Source: an uncultured virus (IMG/VR IMGVR_UViG_3300012956_000002) (lineage: Duplodnaviria; Heunggongvirae; Uroviricota; Caudoviricetes). Taken from it: DNA of 20,000 nucleotides. The notes under the pieces are model-generated. The model did not search any database. It had not been told where the DNA came from and saw only the letters and a program-made list of their open reading frames with translations. The DNA is taken from positions 55,930-75,929 of the IMG/VR virus record IMGVR_UViG_3300012956_000002; one strand, given 5' to 3'. This document shows positions 4,602 to 19,770 of this stretch, one piece after another (the first letter of the stretch is position 1; every line of letters starts with the position of its first letter). The position numbers and the translations under genes were made by a program.

Positions 4602-5522
4602 CTAAAACATGGCCGTTTGTGTGGGCTTGGCTTCCAGCACCCCGCCGAAGACCACCGCAATGCCACGGGAGAGGCCGACCTTCCGCAGCACATCAAGCAG
4701 GATGTCCGCACCTTGCACACCCATCCGCAGCACCAGGCGCTGCCGCGTGATGGCACGCATGAACACATTAGGGTTCATGAGCCAGCGGGTCCGCAGCAGT
4801 TCGAGGTACTTCTTATCCCAATCCTTCACCCCGACAGCGGTCATCCATCCCTCCATCGCGAGAAGATGCCCGATCTCGTCCTTGGTGTTGATCGTGCAAT
4901 CGACCTGATCCGCATCACTCAGCGCGATATGGTCAAAGTAGACGACACACATCAGCGGGGCAGGGCCGAACCGGTGATATGCGCCTTGAAGCTGGAGCCG
5001 GTAGGCGTCTTCGGTGCGGTTGGATGGTTCGAGGTACTTCATGCCCAGCATGGTGTACAGCGCCTGCTCGGATTGGATGGCGAGCTTTGTCTCACCCTTC
5101 CACCAGAATCCCCCTTCGGCCTTGTAGGGCGAGTGGCGGTAGTTGAGGAACTGCATCAGGTACTGGTTGGCATCGCCTGGACCGGTACGCAGCATCAGGA
5201 TGTAGCCCCAATTCCATTCGTTCGCGAGGAATATCTCGCACTTCATCCCTTTGTACAGCAAGCCGCGATAGCTGCTGCCCCAGCGGGCTTTGCCGTTGGA
5301 ATAAATCGCTATTTCGGCCTCACCGGTGGACACCATTTTGTCCAGTGCTTCGAGTAAGCCGCCCTTGTTCATCGCCACGATCTCAATATCCCCGACATCC
5401 GGCTTTTCACGGCGCAAGCTGCCAGCAATCTGGATTTTGGCACAGTACGGGCTTAGCTGTTCGCACAGTGCCTGAGCAATGGGCATGGCCTCATGGTACG
5501 GTCTGCGTTCGTCACTACTCAT
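4602..5522 (-). CDS. Minimal X-family DNA polymerase (Pol beta-like palm and thumb) with an unknown C-terminal domain
   Basis: IAGSLRREKPDVGDIEIVA, LRTGPGDAN and SEQALYTMLGMKYLEPSNR are PolX motifs. No N-terminal lyase domain and no PHP domain. Confidence 0.85.
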   Translation of the reverse strand: MSSDERRPYHEAMPIAQALCEQLSPYCAKIQIAGSLRREKPDVGDIEIVAMNKGGLLEALDKMVSTGEAEIAIYSNGKARWGSSYRGLLYKGMKCEIFLANEWNWGYILMLRTGPGDANQYLMQFLNYRHSPYKAEGGFWWKGETKLAIQSEQALYTMLGMKYLEPSNRTEDAYRLQLQGAYHRFGPAPLMCVVYFDHIALSDADQVDCTINTKDEIGHLLAMEGWMTAVGVKDWDKKYLELLRTRWLMNPNVFMRAITRQRLVLRMGVQGADILLDVLRKVGLSRGIAVVFGGVLEAKPTQTAMF

Positions 5523-6294: not shown

Positions 6295-6564
6295 CTATCC
6301 TTTCACTCGGTACTCAATCACATCGATAATTAGCCGCTCAAGGGCGGCATCACTGATTTTGGAATAGTATTCAACGACCTTCGGATAGGTCTTGGCGTGC
6401 CGCCACTGGCTGACAATATCCTCGATCCGTAAGTGGACATAGGCGCGGTTGTCTTCACACAGGTACTTACGGGATTGCTTCAGCCGCTCCCTGTCGGTGT
6501 TGTGGGCAGCGGCCACGACCAGCTTCTGACGCGGCGAGTGGGGTGAGGGTACTTTACGCGCCAC
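6295..6564 (-). CDS. Hypothetical protein
   Basis: C-terminal part of track ORF 6295..6696. GTG 6564 overlaps the end of the upstream gene; the start is uncertain. Confidence 0.6.
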   Translation of the reverse strand: MARKVPSPHSPRQKLVVAAAHNTDRERLKQSRKYLCEDNRAYVHLRIEDIVSQWRHAKTYPKVVEYYSKISDAALERLIIDVIEYRVKG

Positions 6565-7504
6565 GATCTGCCTGCCATTTCCGTACTTCCGGCTCCAACA
6601 GGTCGGGCCGTAGGTCAGACAGCCATTTGCCATCCTGAAACGACCAGCCGGACTCCATCTCCCAGCGCGTATACTGCCGGTACAGGTCGGGCGCAAATTC
6701 CGCCCCGTTCAACAGGTCATTTTCACCGGCCAACACGCACAACGCACAGGACAGCCGTTCATTGCCAAGGGCATAGGCGGGATGCGCCACAAACGAGCCG
6801 AGCAGGTTCTCGACCAGTTGCTGCTTATCCATGCCGCCCTCGCGCTTTTGCTGGATCGCTGCCTGGTACAGCCGGAGCATGTCCGTCCGGTAGCCAAGTT
6901 CCCACCACACCTGTGAGAGCGTCCAGTCATGGATCGGCAGCCAGTTCAGCACCTGCCGCTTCTTGACGTGGCAGCCTTTCCGCTCCGACAGGATGGGTAG
7001 CCGTGCGCGGTTTTTACTCTCCTCGGCACGCATTCCCATAGTCACAAGGATGCGACCGGTCGGGAAATGATTGTTCACCCAGACGTTGATAACAGCACGT
7101 TTCTCATCGCTCGTGCAGTACCGCGCAGCAGAAGAAGGCCAAAAGGGTTTGTCCGTGCCTGCGAGCTTGTGGCGGCGGCGGTCGATCAGGGCAGGCAAAT
7201 CAAGCCCATCGTTCCGGCGTACCACATGGAGCGGCACACCGGCATCGGCGCACTGCTTGGCGACCACACGGGGCGTCACACCCCACTCGGCGCGGCCAAG
7301 GTCGGCATGTACGGCGATGATCTGCCCTTTAAATGCCATCTGGCGGTGCCAGCGGGTTAAGTGCCGGAGCATGGCCTGAGAATCCTTGCCGCCCGATATG
7401 CTGACGACCAAATCCCAGCCATCGCGCAGGAGCGCACCAGGATCAAGGTCAGGGAGCGCTTGGGCACGTTCCCCTTCATCACAAAAGAGGTCTAATTGCT
7501 TCAT
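6554..7504 (-). CDS. PAPS-reductase/DndC-like family protein (PP-loop ATP pyrophosphatase with Cys motifs)
   Basis: PP-loop SISGGKDS, RYCTSDEKR, GMRAEESKNRA, WLPIHDW and HPAY...RLSCALC. Confidence 0.9.
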   Translation of the reverse strand: MKQLDLFCDEGERAQALPDLDPGALLRDGWDLVVSISGGKDSQAMLRHLTRWHRQMAFKGQIIAVHADLGRAEWGVTPRVVAKQCADAGVPLHVVRRNDGLDLPALIDRRRHKLAGTDKPFWPSSAARYCTSDEKRAVINVWVNNHFPTGRILVTMGMRAEESKNRARLPILSERKGCHVKKRQVLNWLPIHDWTLSQVWWELGYRTDMLRLYQAAIQQKREGGMDKQQLVENLLGSFVAHPAYALGNERLSCALCVLAGENDLLNGAEFAPDLYRQYTRWEMESGWSFQDGKWLSDLRPDLLEPEVRKWQADRGA

Positions 7505-8943: not shown

Positions 8944-9383
8944 GATGCTGCCTGCCGTTCCTTCCATTGGCGGTACAGGTATTTACCGGCATCGGTCAGG
9001 ATCATCATCAAAGCCGTTTCGGTGATGTCATGCTTGACTAAGCCGCGTGCCAGCAGGCTCTCAGCAGCATCATTCGGGATTTCCACCCGTCTGATCGCGC
9101 CACGCTGCCCAAGGTGGATGATGACGTTTTCCTCGGTTGAGTTGAGGATCATCGCCATTTTGAAGCTGTCCGCTTCCTCGATATTGACCTTGGTGTCATC
9201 CAGCCGGTACAGGTCAACACGCAGCTTGGTCAGGTGTAAGGGGAAGAAGTGAATCAATCCCCCTTGCAGATTGCCCGTGCTGGGGTTGTTCCAGCCGAAC
9301 TCGATCACCCGCTGCTCGTTGCGGTCGCGCTTGTTGGCCGCGTCAGCAGGGGTATTCAGGTTTACAGTCACTCGCTTACGCAT
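8940..9383 (-). CDS. Hypothetical protein
   Basis: 147 aa; overlaps both neighbours; C-terminus is wHTH-like (LLARGLV...ILTDAG). Confidence 0.7.
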   Translation of the reverse strand: MRKRVTVNLNTPADAANKRDRNEQRVIEFGWNNPSTGNLQGGLIHFFPLHLTKLRVDLYRLDDTKVNIEEADSFKMAMILNSTEENVIIHLGQRGAIRRVEIPNDAAESLLARGLVKHDITETALMMILTDAGKYLYRQWKERQAAS

Positions 9384-11307
9384 TTTTCACTTGCTCCTTC
9401 TGGGCTATGGCCTCACGCAGAATGCGTGCGGCTTCCTTCATGTCCTCAATATCCCCACTCATCGCCGCCTTGGCGTAGTCGCGCTGGGCTTTGACCAATG
9501 GGTCAATGGCCTTAACAGGTTGCTCTATCGTTACAATGTCCACGGTTTTAGTCGGGACGTAAACAGGTTTCTCAATCATGACAATGCGCGTCTGCACACC
9601 GGTCACACGGTAGCCATTGGCCTTGAAAGCGTCCGGCGGCAGCTTCTCACTCGTCCCGCCGATCTCCTCCAACCACTCGCGGAAGGCCTTGGATTGCTTG
9701 CTGTTGGCGAAAAAGCCATGTTCGCTCATGATGGCGACCAGCTTCCCGCCTTCTTTCAGGAACTGCTCATACACATACTGCACATGCTCGATGTCCTGCT
9801 CATCTTCAAACGGCGGGTTCATGACCACGCGGTCGTACATGTCTTCGCGCTTCACGTCATAGTTGAATATCTGGTAGGCCACCAGCTCGTGCCCTTTGAG
9901 TTCCAGAATGTCACGCAGGCGCAGCACAGGCTCAACGCAGTGGACGATGGCGTCAGGGTGTTGGTCTTTGACCGCATCGGCAATGTTGCCCCAACCGGCA
10001 CTTGGCTCCAGCACCCGCATTCCAGTCTGGATGTCGGCCATTGCCAGCATCTGATCCACAATGTTGCTGGGGGTCGGGATGAAGCCTTCGATGTTCGTCC
10101 CAATCAGATCGCGCTTGATGGCCGCGATTTTGTCCCATGTGGTCATTTCCTTGGGCGGGATGTCCTTCAACAGTTCCCGCAGTTCAAAGCGTGCATCACT
10201 GAAGCGGTGCGGTGTGCCAATCCCTGCCTTCAGCAGCCGTTTGAAGTCGTCTTTCGCCGTAACAGCGCTGGGCAGGTAATCCTTAAACAACAGCCATTCC
10301 ACCGTAGCCCGTGTCAGGACACCCTTCAGCACCTCAGGCACTGTGTCCGTATCCCATGCGTCCGCGAGTTTAAGAAGGGCACTTTGCACCCGTTCCAGGC
10401 GGTCGGCATCCTGCGCCATCCCCGCGATGATGTCCATGCGGCGGCGGGTCGGGTTCTGGTTGGCCGTGGCCGGATGGCGTTTCTCATCAATCAGCTTCTG
10501 CATAGCTACAGCCAACTTGCGGAATTTGTCCGCAGGTGAGTCATAGGTGATAGCCTTGATGGCGTTGTCGGCCTTCAGGTTCTCCACCACTTCATCAAAG
10601 GCAGCCCCATCGACCAGCGCCTGAATATCATCCGGCAGCTTTTCCACTGGACACATCCAGAAGCGGTCTTTGCGGTCGTCTTTGTTCCAGCGGAAGCCAA
10701 GGGTATCCTTGTACTGCCGGAAGGTATCCGCATCCTCAAAGCGCGTGTTGTGGATTTCCCAGCCGCCATCGACCTTGACCGCTCGGTAACTGTCGCTGCT
10801 GCCCTTGGCCTTGGCCTCAGACTTGGCCGCTGGCAGACTGTCGCTCGTCTTGTGCGCTTCCTGATAAATCAGGTCAGACAGGGTATAGCTGCCCCCGCCA
10901 GGGAAAACGCTGTGATCCTGCGCCACATGTGCCGACTGATCCCATGTCGAGGTTTTAATCTCAGGCAGGGGCAGCCCGTAGCGGTCGCACACGATCTGCG
11001 CCATGCGGGTATAGAAGGGCACCGTGTACTTGCGATGCTCATGGATATAATCCGCACCCCAATGTACTTTTTCCTTCGTCACCGGATGGATGCCGTAGAT
11101 CGGGGTTGCTAAATCCTGCATCCCGTCAAACGACTGGCCTTCAAAATTCTTGGTGACCTGTTCCACCTCGGCCACGCTCGGCCCGTCCCACCATTCCACA
11201 TCGGTCGATCCCCCGCTGATGTAGACCCGAAACTTGACTTTAGGCCACATCTCAGCGAGTGCCTGACGAATAAACTTATTCGTTTCGGCTTGCGTGATGT
11301 ACGTCAT
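9376..11307 (-). CDS. Polyvalent protein: N-terminal LPD29-like domain plus C-terminal amino (N6-A type) DNA methyltransferase
   Basis: N-terminus IRQAL...PKVKFRV...VEWWDGPS...FEGQSFDGMQD. C-terminus FIPTP, VLEPSAGWG (motif I) and VVMNPPF (motif IV). AAAGGA RBS. Confidence 0.85.
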   Translation of the reverse strand: MTYITQAETNKFIRQALAEMWPKVKFRVYISGGSTDVEWWDGPSVAEVEQVTKNFEGQSFDGMQDLATPIYGIHPVTKEKVHWGADYIHEHRKYTVPFYTRMAQIVCDRYGLPLPEIKTSTWDQSAHVAQDHSVFPGGGSYTLSDLIYQEAHKTSDSLPAAKSEAKAKGSSDSYRAVKVDGGWEIHNTRFEDADTFRQYKDTLGFRWNKDDRKDRFWMCPVEKLPDDIQALVDGAAFDEVVENLKADNAIKAITYDSPADKFRKLAVAMQKLIDEKRHPATANQNPTRRRMDIIAGMAQDADRLERVQSALLKLADAWDTDTVPEVLKGVLTRATVEWLLFKDYLPSAVTAKDDFKRLLKAGIGTPHRFSDARFELRELLKDIPPKEMTTWDKIAAIKRDLIGTNIEGFIPTPSNIVDQMLAMADIQTGMRVLEPSAGWGNIADAVKDQHPDAIVHCVEPVLRLRDILELKGHELVAYQIFNYDVKREDMYDRVVMNPPFEDEQDIEHVQYVYEQFLKEGGKLVAIMSEHGFFANSKQSKAFREWLEEIGGTSEKLPPDAFKANGYRVTGVQTRIVMIEKPVYVPTKTVDIVTIEQPVKAIDPLVKAQRDYAKAAMSGDIEDMKEAARILREAIAQKEQVKNA

Positions 11308-14010: not shown

Positions 14011-14124
14011 TTCGTATCCTTTCTATTCAGTTGTTAATAAGGGTTTTAGGTCGTGCGACCAATCCCACCCACATGCGAACATGTGGAGGGGCGTGATACA
14101 CGAGCGCAAAGCGGACAGTCATTT

Positions 14125-15216
14125 TCATGATCCAGACTTGGCAGCAAAAGGACTCGCACTGCCGAACGGGCTTGCAGGCTTAGGATTGTTGAAAGAAGGC
14201 CGCGCAGAGGGCGCAGGCACGGGCGCAGGTTTTGGAGCCAGCATGTCCCGCGTGTCCGCGTCCAGCCGCTCCAAAAATTCATGCTCCATTGCTTCCTCTA
14301 AATCCCAACCAAGGAAGTCGATCCCGTCAGCCATCCGCAGCAGTGTCCGGTTTGACAGCACCACGCGCAGCGCGTTGTCGTCAATCGTTTTCCGCATGGA
14401 CGCAGCCCAATCGACCAACTGGTCAGCCGTATACTCATCGTAGCCATTCGAGAGCAGGATTTCTTTCTCATGCTCATACCCTGTCGTGATAATCGTGATC
14501 CGATCCATGCTTGCGGCATCAAGGGCATTGCGACCGACATACTGCCGCGTTGCGCCACTACCGAAAGTGTTCATGGTCAGGATTATCGGGCAGTCACCTT
14601 GCGGATATACCCGCCCTTCAGGGCTTGTGATGTACCGACCCTTTTTGTGCATCCCTGCCGCTTGAAAGGCACTTTGAAGACAGAGAGCCGCACGCGGATT
14701 TGCCGCGTCAAACTCATTGATAATCAAAGCCTTGCCCTGCGTAAAGCAGCGCGTCACAATTCCAGGCTTGTACACCTCCGACCCCTGCCCATCCTTCAGC
14801 ACGTAGGTCGTGGCTCCGATGAGGTCTGCCGGTTCGATAAACTCAGTCATATCGAGGACTTCGTACTCGTACCCCAGCACTTCCAGCACTGCCTCCGCAA
14901 CTGTCGTTTTGCCGTTCCCAGCGGGACCGACAAGCGCAATCACGGGGCGGCATCGGCTAGGCTGTAGATACATGCACAATTTACCCCAATACTTTGGCTT
15001 AATGATGCTCGTATGTGCTGCGATGGCAGCTTCAGACGAATTGTTGTCGATTACGACAGCAAGTCCATCTTTCACCGATACCCACAGCGCGAGGTCATCC
15101 GGTTTGTCACCCTGCCAATTGAGCATAATGCTTATGCTTTGGTCGTCAGGGCTAGTCGTTGTCGCGACAATCCGTGGCTCAGGCAGAGCCATAGCCGTAT
15201 CCGTAACAGACTCCAT
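14125..15216 (-). CDS. MoxR/CbbQ/CobS-like AAA+ ATPase
   Basis: Walker A GPAGNGKT, Walker B variant LIINEFD, sensor region TMNTFGSGATRQYVGRNALDAASMDR. Confidence 0.9.
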   Translation of the reverse strand: MESVTDTAMALPEPRIVATTTSPDDQSISIMLNWQGDKPDDLALWVSVKDGLAVVIDNNSSEAAIAAHTSIIKPKYWGKLCMYLQPSRCRPVIALVGPAGNGKTTVAEAVLEVLGYEYEVLDMTEFIEPADLIGATTYVLKDGQGSEVYKPGIVTRCFTQGKALIINEFDAANPRAALCLQSAFQAAGMHKKGRYITSPEGRVYPQGDCPIILTMNTFGSGATRQYVGRNALDAASMDRITIITTGYEHEKEILLSNGYDEYTADQLVDWAASMRKTIDDNALRVVLSNRTLLRMADGIDFLGWDLEEAMEHEFLERLDADTRDMLAPKPAPVPAPSARPSFNNPKPASPFGSASPFAAKSGS

Positions 15217-15258
15217 AATTTCACCCCTATTCAGTTATTAAATTGCGAAAGTGCGATT

Positions 15259-15325
15259 AGCACATAACAGGGCTTAAATTGCCTTAAGCCCTGTTATGTG
15301 CTGCCAGTGTCAGCACTGGCAGCAC
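15259..15325. repeat. Two overlapping long inverted repeats
   Basis: A 19-bp stem at 15259-15277/15284-15302 and a 12-bp stem at 15298-15309/15314-15325. Confidence 0.85.
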
Positions 15326-15332
15326 GGGCAGC

Positions 15333-15632
15333 CTATTTTCTGGGCAGATACCATGAAATATGAGTCACCTTATCACCCAGCACATAGTCGAGAGTCCAGT
15401 ATTTCGGGGCTGAAGCCTTCAGTATTTGAATGATGAGTCTGATTTCATCATATGTAATAAAGGGCTTATGCCATTCCAGAGTCACCAAAATTCTAGTAAT
15501 GGGCTTAACCTTTGTGCCTGTTTTGGTGATTAGATTCAGGGTGTCAGCAGATTCAAAAATTTTAGCTATGGTCACACCCTTATGAGACTGTAGAGTCTCA
15601 ATTCCTGCCCTTAGTTCCACACCCTTTGTCAT
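15333..15632 (-). CDS. Hypothetical protein, first gene of the leftward operon
   Basis: ATG 15632 with a GAAGGGTG RBS just downstream of the promoter; 99 aa; CG-poor codons. Confidence 0.75.
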   Translation of the reverse strand: MTKGVELRAGIETLQSHKGVTIAKIFESADTLNLITKTGTKVKPITRILVTLEWHKPFITYDEIRLIIQILKASAPKYWTLDYVLGDKVTHISWYLPRK

Positions 15633-15647
15633 GTTGTCACCCTTCAG

Positions 15648-15714
15648 ATAAATTGACTGTACAGTCATTATATAGACTTCAGACTGTACAGTCAATACAT
15701 ATTTTAAAATTGCC
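15648..15714 (-). promoter_or_regulatory. Leftward strong sigma70 promoter with two palindromic operators
   Basis: TTGACT (15695-15690), 17 bp, TATAAT (15672-15667). GACTGTACAGTC at 15682-15693 and TGACTGTACAGTCA at 15654-15667. AT-rich UP-like element. Confidence 0.85.
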
Positions 15715-15720
15715 TATTTT

Positions 15721-16079
15721 TGCTGCCAGTGCTGCCAGTGTCAGCCCATAAAATCACCCTTTGTCATCCTCGAAACAAAGCATAAGAGGATAGAAGGCAG
15801 CATAAGAGGATAGAAGGGCTGACAGCCCACAGAAGGCAGCATAAGCCCTTCTGTGCTGCCAGTGCTGCCAGTGTCAGCCCACAGAAGGCAGCAAAATTTT
15901 TCACCCTGGTATGCACTTTTTTAATTGCCAGTGCTGCCAGTGTCAGCCCATAAAATCACCCTTTGTCATCCTCGAAACAAAGCATAAGAGGATAGAAGGC
16001 AGTGTCAGCCCACAGAAGGCAGCAAAATTTTTCACCCTGGTATGCACTTTTTTAATTGCCAGTGCTGCCAGTGTCAGCC
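15721..16079. repeat. Nested direct-repeat array between the divergent promoters (candidate origin or genome-end region)
   Basis: A ~77-bp block at ~15724 repeats 202 bp later, and a ~78-bp block at ~15871 repeats 131 bp later. GCTGCCAGTGTCAGCC occurs four times. Confidence 0.85.
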
Positions 16080-16111
16080 TAGACTCACCCCTCATAATGA
16101 GGGGTAATTGT

Positions 16112-16178
16112 GGCAATTTTAAAATATCTATTGACTGTACAGTCACATATCCATATAATGACTGTATAGTCAATTTAT
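16112..16178 (+). promoter_or_regulatory. Rightward strong sigma70 promoter with two palindromic operators
   Basis: TTGACT (16131-16136), 17 bp, TATAAT (16154-16159). TGACTGTACAGTCA at 16132-16145 and TGACTGTATAGTCA at 16159-16172. Inverted copy of 15648-15714. Confidence 0.85.
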
Positions 16179-16220
16179 AGGTAAGCACTTGATTAAGTTC
16201 TATGAAGACTAATCACCCTT

Positions 16221-16298
16221 TGTCATCCTCGTGCAAAGCATAAGAGGATGACACTCAGAAGGGCTTAAGCATAAGCCCTTAAGCCCTTCTGAGTGTCA
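16221..16298 (+). repeat. Overlapping hairpins in the 5' leader
   Basis: 10-bp stem TGTCATCCTC/GAGGATGACA (16221-16253) and a perfect 21-bp stem at 16249-16269/16278-16298. Confidence 0.85.
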
Positions 16299-16346
16299 AT
16301 ATAGACACTAGGCAAAATTGCCAGCAAAAACAAAGGATTATGAATC

Positions 16347-17033
16347 ATGACTACAGTAGATAGCATTCCTGTTACAAGCAATATGAAGACTGGTATCAGT
16401 GCCAAGGGCATAGCAGCACAAGCCAAGGCACAACTGGCAGCACAGAAGGCACAATTAGAAGCACAGAAGGCAGAACTCAAACAGACTGAGTCAGCACTGA
16501 AGGCAGAACTCAAACAGAAGAAAGAATCACTGAAGGCTGAGTCAGATGCTGCCAAGGCTGAAGCCCTTGGCAAGAAAGTACAAATTGACTCTTACCTTTG
16601 GCTTGCTAATTGGGCAAAGGGCAGCATAAGGGCAGACAAGGCAGAGAAGGCAGCACTGAAGGCAATTGAGAAGGCAGAAAAGACACTAGAAAAGATAGCA
16701 GCACCTAAAACCCCTGAATATCAGAATGGTAATGAGATTATCAAAACTGACTTGCCACAGACTCATGCTGATGTCTTGAATCTCATTGCTGAAGGCTTGT
16801 CAGCCAGTGTCAGCACTAAGGGTAAGTCAAAGGGTGATGTCATTATTGCCAGTGCAAGAATTGACCTTGCTAACCTGAAGAAAAAACATGCTGAAGCCCT
16901 TCAGTCATTAATCACAAAGGATTATGTCAGCATGACTCAACCTGATTACTACATGCTGACTGACAAAGGGCTGGCAGTGTTTGGGCTGACACTACAACAG
17001 GTCAAAGATAATTACCTTGCATCGCTCGAATAA
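16347..17033 (+). CDS. Lys/Ala-rich coiled-coil protein with a possible C-terminal wHTH
   Basis: 228 aa; AAAGGA RBS; AQKAQL/AELKQ heptads; LQSLITKDYV...YMLTDKG. No CG dinucleotide until the last four codons. Confidence 0.8.
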   Translation: MTTVDSIPVTSNMKTGISAKGIAAQAKAQLAAQKAQLEAQKAELKQTESALKAELKQKKESLKAESDAAKAEALGKKVQIDSYLWLANWAKGSIRADKAEKAALKAIEKAEKTLEKIAAPKTPEYQNGNEIIKTDLPQTHADVLNLIAEGLSASVSTKGKSKGDVIIASARIDLANLKKKHAEALQSLITKDYVSMTQPDYYMLTDKGLAVFGLTLQQVKDNYLASLE

Positions 17034-17048
17034 AGCATAAGACAGCAT

Positions 17049-17149
17049 TAGAAGGGCAGCATAAGCCCTTCTGTGCTGCCTTCAGGGCTGATGTCATCCA
17101 TCAGCCCTGAAGGCAGTATAAGACACTCGAAACAAAGCATAAGAGGATA
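17049..17149 (+). repeat. ~100-bp structured intergenic leader repeat (copy 1)
   Basis: Near-identical to 17370-17469. Contains an 18-bp stem CTGCCTTCAGGGCTGATG/CATCAGCCCTGAAGGCAG and ends in CTCGAAACAAAGCATAAGAGGATA. Confidence 0.85.
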
Positions 17150-17157
17150 GAAAAAAC

Positions 17158-17337
17158 ATGAGACAAGATTCTGTTTGTTGTGTCATAGGTGAGATTTTAT
17201 TCATTATGAAAACTGGAATGTGCCAAGGTTACACACTCACATTCCATTCTGCCAAGGCAGCACTAGCCTATGCCAGACTCTGTAGAATGGATTTAATGAA
17301 GGCTGAAGCCTTTATTGCCTTCTGTGAGGGATCATAG
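17158..17337 (+). CDS. Small Cys-rich hypothetical protein (59 aa, not in the ORF track)
   Basis: MRQDSVCCVIGEILFIMKTGMCQGYTLTFHSAKAALAYARLCRMDLMKAEAFIAFCEGS*. The GAGGA RBS comes from the repeat, and the ORF fills the gap between the two repeat copies. Confidence 0.6.
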   Translation: MRQDSVCCVIGEILFIMKTGMCQGYTLTFHSAKAALAYARLCRMDLMKAEAFIAFCEGS

Positions 17338-17369
17338 GGCAGTGCTGACACTGGCAGCACTGGTAAGCA

Positions 17370-17469
17370 TAGAAGGGCAGTATAAGCCCTTCTGTGCTGC
17401 CTTCAGGGCTGATGTCATCCATCAGCCTAGAAGGCAGTACAGACACTCGAAACAAAGCATAAGAGGATA
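17370..17469 (+). repeat. ~100-bp structured intergenic leader repeat (copy 2)
   Basis: Matches copy 1; its GAGGA serves ATG 17475. Confidence 0.85.
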
Positions 17470-17474
17470 ACAGC

Positions 17475-17783
17475 ATGTTAGAAGTGCATAGGGCAGTGTC
17501 AGCACTGGCAGCAAACAAAGGCTTGCTAGTGCTGACTCATGCCAGTGTCAGAAGTGAATTAGAGCATAGAGTCACCTTACAGCCCATGCCTGGATTGCAA
17601 GGCGGCCTACGAGCGGCAGTGCATGAGGTCTGGCTGGGCATCCTCGATGATGCGGCCAGCCGCGATGGCCTGAGAAGGCAGTACACGAACTATCGCAAGG
17701 ATGGCACGCTCGAAGTGACCTACAGCGCGATCAGCGATGAGAATACCGAAAAACCGACAAACCAGTCGGTTTTTCGTTTCTAA
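17475..17783 (+). CDS. Hypothetical protein spanning the edge of the CG-free island
   Basis: 102 aa; GAGGA RBS. Confidence 0.65.
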   Translation: MLEVHRAVSALAANKGLLVLTHASVRSELEHRVTLQPMPGLQGGLRAAVHEVWLGILDDAASRDGLRRQYTNYRKDGTLEVTYSAISDENTEKPTNQSVFRF

Positions 17784-18178: not shown

Positions 18179-19006
18179 GTGCAGATGATCGAGACAACGC
18201 AGGACATCCGGCTGGACATGATTCAGCCTGGAAGCAATGACCGCAAGCTGTTTAAGGCGGATGAACTCCGGCAGCTTGCGGACAATATCAAGACGAATGG
18301 ACTGGCGCAGCCTATCACCGTTCGACCGGTGGGCAAAAACCAGTACCAGATCGTCGCCGGTGAGCGGCGGTTCCGTGCCTTCGGACTGCTGCGGGAGGAG
18401 GACGCCGAGCGCTGGGGTGCGATTACTGCCCTCGTGCGTGAGATGTCGGATGAGAAGGCGGACGCCATCATGCTGGCCGAGAACATCCAGCGCAAAGACT
18501 TGGATGTGATTGAGGAAGCCGAGGCGTACCAGAAGCGGATGGATAAGTACGGATGGACGCTGAAGAAGTGCGCCGAGGAATGCAATGTCAGTGAAGGCAG
18601 GGTAGGCGACCGCGTGAAGCTGTTGAAGCTGCTGCCGGAAGTGCAAACCCTTGTCCGGCACGGGCATATGCCCATCGGGCACGCGCTGGCAATGACCGAC
18701 CTGAACAAAAACAACCAGCTCATCGCGTTGAAGGCGTTGGACGGAAAGAACCTGACCAAGACGCAGTACATCGCGGTGTGTGCCGACCTGTACGCCAAAC
18801 AGTGCCAATTGTCGATGTTCGATGATGACCAACTGTTTAACGAGGCGGTGGTGCTGGCACAGAGTTTTATTGAGCCGGTCAACACGACTATTGTATTTGA
18901 GATTCCGAACAACCGTGCTACTATCCATGTAGTGATCGAATACCCCAAGGGCTTAGGTGTCGAGATCGATACCGCAGCCATCGCCAAACTCATAACTTTT
19001 AAATGA
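18179..19006 (+). CDS. parB: ParB/RepB/Spo0J-family protein
   Basis: LADNIKTNGLAQPITVR, IVAGERRFRA (CTPase box), ENIQRKDL..IEEA, then an HTH (TLKKCAEECNVSEGRV). Confidence 0.9.
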   Translation: MQMIETTQDIRLDMIQPGSNDRKLFKADELRQLADNIKTNGLAQPITVRPVGKNQYQIVAGERRFRAFGLLREEDAERWGAITALVREMSDEKADAIMLAENIQRKDLDVIEEAEAYQKRMDKYGWTLKKCAEECNVSEGRVGDRVKLLKLLPEVQTLVRHGHMPIGHALAMTDLNKNNQLIALKALDGKNLTKTQYIAVCADLYAKQCQLSMFDDDQLFNEAVVLAQSFIEPVNTTIVFEIPNNRATIHVVIEYPKGLGVEIDTAAIAKLITFK

Positions 19007-19770
19007 AACGAGGTGTCATGGGCACATTAGCCGACAATTTCTATGCCAATGGGATGCCCCTCAGTGGGCCGGACGTGATTAAACGTATCCAGCAGGAAAC
19101 GGATGAAATCGCGGTCGCCTTCTCGTATGGGAAGGACTCACTGGCAACCTACCTCTCCGTGAAAGACGAGTTTAAGCGGGTCGTGCCGTTCTTCAGAGAG
19201 TTCGTTCCGGGGATGCAGTTCATCGAGCGCAGGCTCGCCTATTATGAGGACATCCTCGGTACGCACATCGTCCGCGTCAACCACGTCAATTTCTTCCGCA
19301 TGATCCGCCATGCGCTGTGGCAGCCGCCGCACCGCATCCCCATGATCGATGCCATGAACATACCGGATGTCGATTACAAGCAAATCAACCAACTGGTATT
19401 TGCCGATCAGGGATTGCCGCCAGATGTGTTCACGGCAGCAGGGGTCAGGGCAGCAGACAGCCCCCAGCGTCGGGCAACGGCCAAATCCAGAGGTGCAATC
19501 AACTGGAATGAGCGCGTGTTCTGGCCGGTCTGGGATTTATCCCATGCCGAGGTGGGCGACATGCTGCGGAAGCACAACATCAAGCTCTCACCAGAGTACG
19601 AATGGTGGGGCACATCGTTTGACGGGCTTCGGAGGTTCTTCTTAAAAGACATCCGTGAGCATTGGCCGGAGGATTATGATCTGATCCTCCAATATTATCC
19701 GTTCGCGGATATGGAATTTCGCCGCTATGAACTGAAGGATGAACCCTATCCAGAAAGCGAGGTCAAGTGA
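19003..19770 (+). CDS. Phage-type PAPS-reductase-like / adenine nucleotide alpha-hydrolase protein
   Basis: PP-loop AFSYGKDS, GVRAADSPQRR, FWPVWD and SFDG; no Cys residues. Start is 19003 (ATGA coupling) or 19018 (GAGGTG RBS). Confidence 0.8.
   Translation: MKRGVMGTLADNFYANGMPLSGPDVIKRIQQETDEIAVAFSYGKDSLATYLSVKDEFKRVVPFFREFVPGMQFIERRLAYYEDILGTHIVRVNHVNFFRMIRHALWQPPHRIPMIDAMNIPDVDYKQINQLVFADQGLPPDVFTAAGVRAADSPQRRATAKSRGAINWNERVFWPVWDLSHAEVGDMLRKHNIKLSPEYEWWGTSFDGLRRFFLKDIREHWPEDYDLILQYYPFADMEFRRYELKDEPYPESEVK

Follow-up and report, generated by a model that had tools for sequence, protein, structure and literature searches.

A CG-poor island, probably spanning the chromosome ends of an uncultured tailed phage, keeps its CGs in one repeated motif

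Why would a stretch of phage DNA that has lost nearly all of its CG dinucleotides keep the few that remain in a single repeated motif? The stretch lies within a window of 20,000 nucleotides, the last 20 kb of a 75,929-bp virus record (IMG/VR IMGVR_UViG_3300012956_000002, positions 55,930 to 75,929). The final 123 bp of this record repeat its start, so that the unit genome measures 75.8 kb, and it is a complete tailed-phage genome. The motif, CTCG-N3/4-AAAGCATAAG, is found in a CG-poor island of about 2.3 kb, at positions 15255-17602 of the window. The answer that we put forward, tentatively, is that the island constitutes the two chromosome ends, purged of restriction targets, and that the CG of the motif was kept because it belongs to a protein-binding site, possibly one that positions the end cuts.

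The island and its motif

In the core of the island (15407-17602), 7 CGs are present where about 106 are expected (Poisson P~3×10−36), at 15771, 15973, 16230, 17023, 17027, 17128 and 17448. The CG-poor zone extends leftward to about 15255, with three further CGs outside the motif (15325, 15389 and 15405), and its right edge, at 17603, is sharp. The island is unique in the genome, the six longest CG-free gaps being all located within it.

Six copies of the motif, all on the + strand, start at 15769, 15971, 16228, 17025, 17126 and 17446. Those at 15769, 15971, 17126 and 17446 are one exact 24-mer, and on a single strand of the island chance would provide AAAGCATAAG about 0.006 times. An earlier note, made from the letters of the window, had reported these copies and had placed six of the seven CGs in the motif and the seventh (17023) next to it; both observations were borne out. 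A search of the whole 75.9-kb genome returned no other exact copy, and added one near-copy, GACG-ACC-AAAGCATAAG (15131-15147, − strand; copy 7 below), inside an AAA-ATPase gene and oriented with leftward transcription. For such a match, 6×10−4 are expected within 300 bp of the island edge.

Copies 1 (15769-15792) and 2 (15971-15994), both perfect, share a 77-bp duplication, and copy 1 has a weak 6-bp stem. Copy 3 (16228-16244) is the N3 variant, with TCGT, and belongs to a hairpin of 10 bp within what is predicted to be the 5′ leader of ORF228, a 228-codon open reading frame (ORF) at 16347-17033 on the + strand. Copy 4, taken with its adjacent CG (17023-17041), overlaps the last codons and the stop of ORF228. 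Copies 5 (17126-17149) and 6 (17446-17469) are again perfect, and hold a GAGGA ahead of a 59-codon ORF (17158-17337, + strand) and of an ORF starting at 17475, respectively. That two copies provide a ribosome-binding site, as proposed earlier, agrees with a GAGGA being found before both ATGs (17158 and 17475), although Pfam and PHROGs gave no match for either ORF. Because copies 1/2 and 5/6 lie within longer recent duplications (77-100 bp), the six copies stand for some three to four independent lineages. Their spacing is irregular (202, 257, 797, 101 and 320). CTCG and AAAGCATAAG are kept while flanks and spacer length vary between copies, identity between copy classes sets in precisely at CTCG, and in copy 4 the surroundings have diverged but the core is intact.

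The purge is a local one, restricted to the island, and the CGs that survive are limited to the motif. In the 2040 nt of the core that lie outside the six copies there is no CG and no TCGA, against about 7.7 TCGA expected (P~4×10−4, before allowing for repeats). Five of the seven CGs are in TCGA, the other two in TCGT and TCGC. The ORF228 gene contains 2 CGs where 34 are expected. Both fall within the final 11 nt of the gene, which copy 4 overlaps, at codons for which synonymous escapes were available. Retention of CG is therefore supported as specific to the motif. The purge helps to locate functional bases, since a forbidden CG that is retained is probably needed. The motif is probably functional, likely as a protein-binding site on DNA.

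In which form would it be read? The earlier note had drawn ATCCTC/GAGGAT hairpins around three copies, and these stems are indeed present at 15766-15791, 15968-15993 and 16221-16253, the last one over 10 bp. Folding with DNA parameters gave a z of −4.8 for copy 3 and −1.2 for copies 1 and 2, copies 4 to 6 showing none, and Rfam returned no match at the gathering score. The structure is strong in one copy of six and so is not conserved across the motif, which suggests that the conserved element is the primary sequence, and that a site on double-stranded DNA is likelier than an RNA element. No + strand call of a sigma70 promoter scan covers any motif copy. Chromosomal-type parS sites are 16-bp palindromes; here the conserved core is asymmetric, and a 6-bp inverted flank exists in copies 1 and 2 only, so the motif does not have the form of a parS.

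Other words than CG are missing from the island. With dinucleotide content held fixed, the core has no GGCC (6.4 expected), one AGCT (19.9), one GATC (6.0) and no GGNCC (4.4), while GGCC, AGCT and GATC are common in the genome body. Out of 161 palindromic REBASE sites, 52 occur in the island, versus 65-85 in 35 windows (every second one of those computed) and 83.5 in dinucleotide-matched controls, a gap that is inflated by the repetitiveness of the island. In the body, 5- and 6-bp sites are almost wholly avoided (GCCGGC 0 against 65 expected, CGGCCG 0 against 56, TGATCA 0 against 35) and 4-bp sites are kept, so that the island appears as the extreme end of a genome-wide avoidance. Over the whole genome, many 6-bp palindromes, as well as CCSGG and GGNCC, are nearly absent.

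Hosts were compared by means of seven small sample sets of Chloroflexota genomes, 20-40 kb each. Single genomes avoid matching words (GGCC 0.06 in G012, AGCT 0.01 in G779), and none of the seven sets avoids CG. GANTC is under-used in all seven (0.42-0.76) and in the phage body (0.47). The island holds 18 GANTC, in 18 distinct contexts, against 6.4 expected (2.8-fold, P~1×10−4), together with 22 GCWGC (11.8 expected) and 10 TTAA (9.9 expected). According to PMC6329791, these three motifs are methylated by solitary enzymes in lake Anaerolineae. Our reading is that words lacking a cognate nuclease are allowed in the island; GANTC and GCWGC may be such safe words, or a signal timed by host methylation. 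Keeping these three words argues against an avoidance of methyl marks in general, and not against an avoidance of 5-methylcytosine (5mC).

Two other causes of CG loss were considered and rejected, the first of them as the main cause. Decay by deamination of 5mC does not agree with CT having risen more than CA, nor with GGTC/GACC and AGTT/AACT not being enriched. If McrBC were the sole agent avoided, CGs in YCGR contexts, which make up about a quarter of those of the body, should have persisted.

The island as chromosome ends

The sole run found to hold the island is an activated-sludge metagenome (run X1); no RNA dataset was among the runs holding it. In run X1, two contigs covering 16050-17090 and 17077-17411, both on single-copy k-mers, have depths of 41.0 and 43.8, as compared to 18.7, 19.3 and 20.2 for body contigs of 40.3, 20.3 and 12.4 kb. 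A step model that doubles only about 15920-17410 predicts depths of 57.6 and 62 for two contigs shared between repeats, for which 57.3 and 62.8 were seen; if the whole low-GC island is doubled instead, the predicted values are 75 and 84. GC bias was rejected as the source of the doubled depth, on account of this better fit. With a rough error model, the fitted left end is at 15885-15925 and the right end at about 17340-17424.

A doubled coverage between two fixed points is the signature of a direct terminal repeat (PMC5557969), and coverage of about twofold over a bounded segment is what this one run displays. A direct terminal repeat of about 1.5 kb (15923-17411) is thus well supported by one data set, from which we infer, with good confidence, that 15.92-17.40 kb is present twice per virion chromosome, and that this repeat with its flanks corresponds to the chromosome ends. 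Among the contigs listed for the island, whose records are filtered and leave 15754-15918 uncovered, there is no back-joint or foreign flank. If the repeat is real, the linear chromosome begins with about 1.7 kb and ends with about 2.2 kb of CG-free DNA.

The purge would then likely have arisen because end DNA is the first to meet host restriction enzymes. T5-like and Murciavirus phages are restricted only by sites in the DNA injected first (PMC10644984; PMC12455610). In the present phage, by analogy, the end DNA would probably enter unprotected; the products of ORF228 and of two small ORFs, which stand behind two consensus sigma70 promoters, would already have acted when the site-rich body comes to be exposed. 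It is rather probable that the motif would be read there as a primary sequence on double-stranded DNA, its CG being either needed, or shielded by the bound protein.

What, then, could read it? Both fitted ends lie about 35-50 bp upstream of a perfect copy: copy 2 is 46-86 bp (best 48) to the right of the left end, and copy 6 about 21-105 bp to the right of the right end, values that are compatible with a common offset of about 46-60 bp, for which chance accounts in 6-20% of cases. Copies 2 and 6 are spaced by 1475 bp, which matches the fitted repeat length. Each of the four perfect copies is preceded by a TGCC, at distances of 45, 45, 49 and 48 nt, with intervening bases that are unrelated between the two classes. 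Finally, a mosaic joint via TGCC is present at 15842-15881 (+ strand), in no contig among those listed: its left part is the sequence that immediately precedes the fitted right end (17383-17401, or the duplicate 17062-17080), and its right part the sequence that immediately follows the fitted left end (15930-15950, or 15728-15748). Spacing, TGCC offset and joint are three hints that are not fully independent. They would fit a terminase, or an end-duplication machinery, cutting close to a TGCC that precedes a perfect copy by about 45-50 bp. We rank such an end-cutting signal first, as a conjecture that may well be wrong, ahead of a duplicated passenger and of a regulator or ParB site. The earlier proposal of a sequence-specific site for a packaging or ejection protein gains from the island being an apparent terminal repeat, while its RNA or hairpin form is unsupported, copy 3 being the only one to fold strongly.

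A number of observations weigh against this account. On the side of the purge, it removes a whole dinucleotide, which goes beyond known 4-bp targets; GATC is purged from the island yet not avoided in any of the seven host sets (0.88-1.71), and TCGA is not avoided in them either (1.0-1.54). The repeat of T5 is CG-rich (observed/expected, o/e, 1.31) and keeps GGCC, AGCT and GATC. In addition, 39% of the island bases are in repeated 14-mers, as in a mosaic, so that repeated words are cheap there. On the side of the ends, depth comes from one run, which is probably the assembly source, with one figure per contig and no read starts. The CG-poor zone overshoots the fitted repeat by about 670 bp on the left and 190 bp on the right, and the stretch 15754-15918, in which the joint of the predicted ends lies, is on no contig among those listed; filtering may account for this gap, as may a minor variant or an artefact of assembly. 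Random placements reproduce the match of the ends with the motif in 6-11% of trials, or 10-20% when either side is counted. Copies 1 and 5 share near-identical upstream context and yet seem not to be the main ends, and no end is situated anywhere close to copies 3, 4 or 7. As for selection on the CG, which the earlier note had claimed, the restriction of CG and TCGA to the motif speaks for it, but the nearest ORF228 homologue (P0002) ends in NTLK and cannot encode CTC-GAA-TAA, a weak negative, and a codon-junction comparison gave 2/12 versus 21/66 (P=0.21).

Competing explanations

The strongest competitor keeps the ends and the purge and makes the motif a passenger: a single CG that escaped would have been spread by slippage or duplication, TCGA being a weak target. 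The recent duplications that hold copies 1/2 and 5/6, the repeated 14-mers and the prevalence of TCGA among the surviving CGs, a word that is not avoided in the phage body any more than in the host sets, speak for this scenario, and the C-terminus of the homologue, without the codons of copy 4, goes in the same direction. It has more difficulty with the absence of TCGA from the rest of the core, with the two CGs that are in TCGT and TCGC, with class identity starting at CTCG around an intact core in copy 4, and with a seventh copy on the other strand. We consider it unlikely, though serious.

Somewhat less probable to us is that a regulatory or partition protein (ORF228, the product of a 99-codon ORF, or ParB) binds the motif to act on early genes or to coat the ends, with no role in cutting. 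The strand of G[CT]ATAAG follows transcription, with 13 on the + strand to the right of the leftward promoter and 2 on the − strand to its left. Copies 3 to 6 are placed in a leader, at a stop codon and before ribosome-binding sites; ORF228 is winged-helix-like, and the ParB gene is 730 bp from copy 6. Against such a regulator, the promoters have palindromic operators of their own, the copies are irregularly spaced and lack a palindromic form, and the ORFs that were scanned with Pfam and PHROGs included no ParA.

A bolder version, in which a family of Chloroflexota phages builds CG-free ends against a CG-reading defence, and methylation of the motif, with GANTC/GCWGC, gates cutting of the repeat, is a long shot; if true, it would imply an undescribed host defence acting at the level of CG, and an end processing timed by methylation. 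About as improbable is that the purge removes 5mC targets, a C5 methyltransferase of the phage or of the host marking CG, GGCC and AGCT, the ends thereby evading methyl-dependent nucleases, and the CG of the motif serving as the methylation-sensitive switch that the earlier note had envisaged. This would account for the purge of a whole dinucleotide, and the phage does encode methyltransferases in number; AluI-type methylation of AGCT makes DNA sensitive to McrBC, according to PMC12707154. But if CG, GGCC and AGCT carried the mark in virions, there would be no reason for the body to avoid almost totally the 6-bp sites that contain those cores, and the island keeps 50 GANTC, TTAA and GCWGC sites of the kind methylated in Anaerolineae, though these are N6-methyladenine or N4-methylcytosine marks.

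Least of all do we believe in a motif acting as the loop of an RNA or single-stranded DNA hairpin (antitermination, translational operator), or in a doubled depth due to a second element or a collapsed duplication: the island does contain 17 perfect hairpins of at least 8 bp, against 0-3 per equal-sized window in 28 body windows, many with AG[CT]ATAA loops, but no structure is predicted for copies 5 and 6, the divergent promoters have copies 1 and 2 between them, and the contigs listed show neither back-joint nor foreign flank.

The phage, its relatives and known systems

Two divergent sigma70-type promoters, TTGACT-17-TATAAT, each scoring 11/12, are present in the island, one leftward (15667-15695, − strand), the other rightward (16131-16159, + strand). 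Each is overlapped by two GACTGTACAGTC palindromes (15652-15667 and 15679-15694; 16130-16145 and 16157-16172), which are 27 bp apart and cover the −35 box and the start site. Promoters and palindromes together are a candidate repressor-controlled early switch, with ORF228 as candidate repressor. The leftward promoter is first followed by the 99-codon ORF (15333-15632, − strand), which has no family match.

ORF228 is predicted to comprise a Lys/Ala-rich coiled coil and a winged-helix-like domain; its model has a long Lys/Ala-rich helix and a C-terminal domain mostly at 70-90 in predicted local distance difference test (pLDDT). With 8 homologous clusters it forms a nine-member family, 4 members of which match HTH_45 (best E 6×10−4); fold matches are weak, and fold searches gave none at E≤0.001. 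All nine are Arg-poor (Arg/(Arg+Lys) 0.03-0.33, versus 0.40-0.76 in 25 other phage proteins), as CG-free coding would force, although Lys-rich DNA binders may be so anyway. Two members are on contigs of 56,115 and 9,056 bp, and contigs of equal size carry close TerL or capsid homologues, which suggests that ORF228 occupies the same neighbourhood in related phages.

The longest perfect hairpins are a 21-bp one with a CATAAGCC loop (16249-16298), an 18-bp one (17076-17116), whose imperfect copy (17397-17436) lies across the fitted right end, and a 19-bp and a 12-bp one at the left edge of the CG-poor zone (15259-15325), only suggestive of a T5-like injection stop signal. At the right edge, the purge ends abruptly at 17603, within the ORF 17475-17783; this ORF perhaps has its true start further on, or else the edge may reflect how far the DNA lies from the chromosome end. 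The sequence AACTGAATAG stands ahead of the ribosome-binding sites of the AAA-ATPase gene and of the next gene (15227-15236 and 14023-14032, − strand), and nowhere else in the genome.

PHROGs and Pfam recognize TerS, TerL, portal, tail and tape-measure proteins, a tyrosine integrase, an O-like initiator, a DnaC-like loader, ParB, two PAPS-reductase-like proteins and four methyltransferases (C5, D12-class, MT-A70 and LPD29-fused). On both arms, the island is flanked by a PolX-like gene, the two PAPS-reductase-like genes, the LPD29-methyltransferase fusion and ParB (4602-5522, 6554-7504, 9376-11307 and 18179-19770), the ParB-like protein (18179-19006, + strand) adjoining the island. The C5 methyltransferase (L003:12002-13540; 512 aa) has intact catalytic motifs and a long variable region, and is a candidate multispecific enzyme. 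Between head genes, at L001:7995-14039, lie a formyltransferase, a glycosyltransferase, a second terminase-like ATPase fragment, an MT-A70 methyltransferase and an aminotransferase, an insertion with a possible role in virion glycosylation or DNA modification. A second repetitive stretch (L003:1-1080), in a tail-region gene with tandem repeats, is broken up in run X1 into short contigs that carry back-joints.

The putative capsid protein and TerL have named homologues in Caldilineaceae, Phototrophicaceae, Aggregatilineales and Anaerolineae records, and 15 of the 17 genome loci bearing the capsid gene are from Chloroflexota, so that the host likely belongs to this phylum, probably to the Anaerolineae. 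Relatives were sought with single queries (ORF228, the AAA protein, the capsid protein and P0244), which gave no confirmed locus, and with alignments of capsid and TerL, which gave 257 loci; with five whole virus records, two of them complete, 276 loci were examined in all. At 32-54% capsid identity, these contained no motif copy and no credible ORF228 homologue (a match of the ORF228 domain in L077, best domain E 1.3, was judged spurious), from which it can be said, for this distance only, that the island is not shared across the family. Four of 251 loci of at least 3 kb have a 1.5-kb stretch with CG o/e below 0.35; all four are AT-rich and keep AGCT in their most CG-poor windows. A motif scan of viral contigs gave two single matches, inside genes of unrelated AT-rich phages, and the promoter-operator pattern gave none. 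Profile searches over about 1,200 genome slots returned only a host winged-helix gene and low-complexity matches (1/382 and 1/251, the same gene; 0/151; 0/5 twice; 7/401, low-complexity). By blastn the island had no match in 50,697 phage records, and none in cultured phages. In the literature searched, outside of which most subscription journals fall, we came across neither this motif nor a terminal repeat free of CG, and no such end-marker work for phages of Chloroflexota.

Restriction-poor first-entering DNA also exists in the leading regions of plasmids. Among phages, the closest likeness is with T5 and BF23 (Tequintavirus), which have a long direct terminal repeat (here deduced from depth), divergent strong host promoters, a DNA-binding-type early gene, many repeats and palindromes, and restriction sites that matter mainly in the end segment (PMC10644984; bioRxiv 10.1101/866236). 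The island is depleted in restriction targets relative to the body, as in a T5-type arrangement, but its repeat is about 1.5 kb instead of about 10 kb in T5, and no ORF of the island matches T5 A1, A2 or dmp in PHROGs or Pfam. With Murciavirus and T7-like Autographiviridae it shares a selection against restriction targets concentrated in first-entering DNA (PMC12455610), and variable short repeat arrays in or beside terminal repeats (PMC5923468). Those are podoviruses with repeats of about 200 bp and their own RNA polymerase, and PMC12455610 covers one Type I motif, whereas here a long-tailed phage with integrase and ParB has purged a whole dinucleotide and several 4-mers.

The motif itself compares best with terminase sites. 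Recognition sequences of terminases sit beside the cut, as in cosB of λ and the pac sites of P22/P1 and T3/T7. Likewise, the motif is repeated in the same orientation, tens of bases from the presumed cuts, and the terminase genes are about 3 kb away on the circular map; unlike them, it has extra copies far from the ends, and the likeness drawn here is one of position. The purge could serve as a sequence-only marker for genome ends in phages of Chloroflexota, ORF228 is a candidate early DNA-protecting protein, and the words kept and purged could predict the enzymes of uncultured hosts. Compared with these systems, the purge is of a known kind at an unusual extreme, and goes far beyond what the T5 repeat shows.

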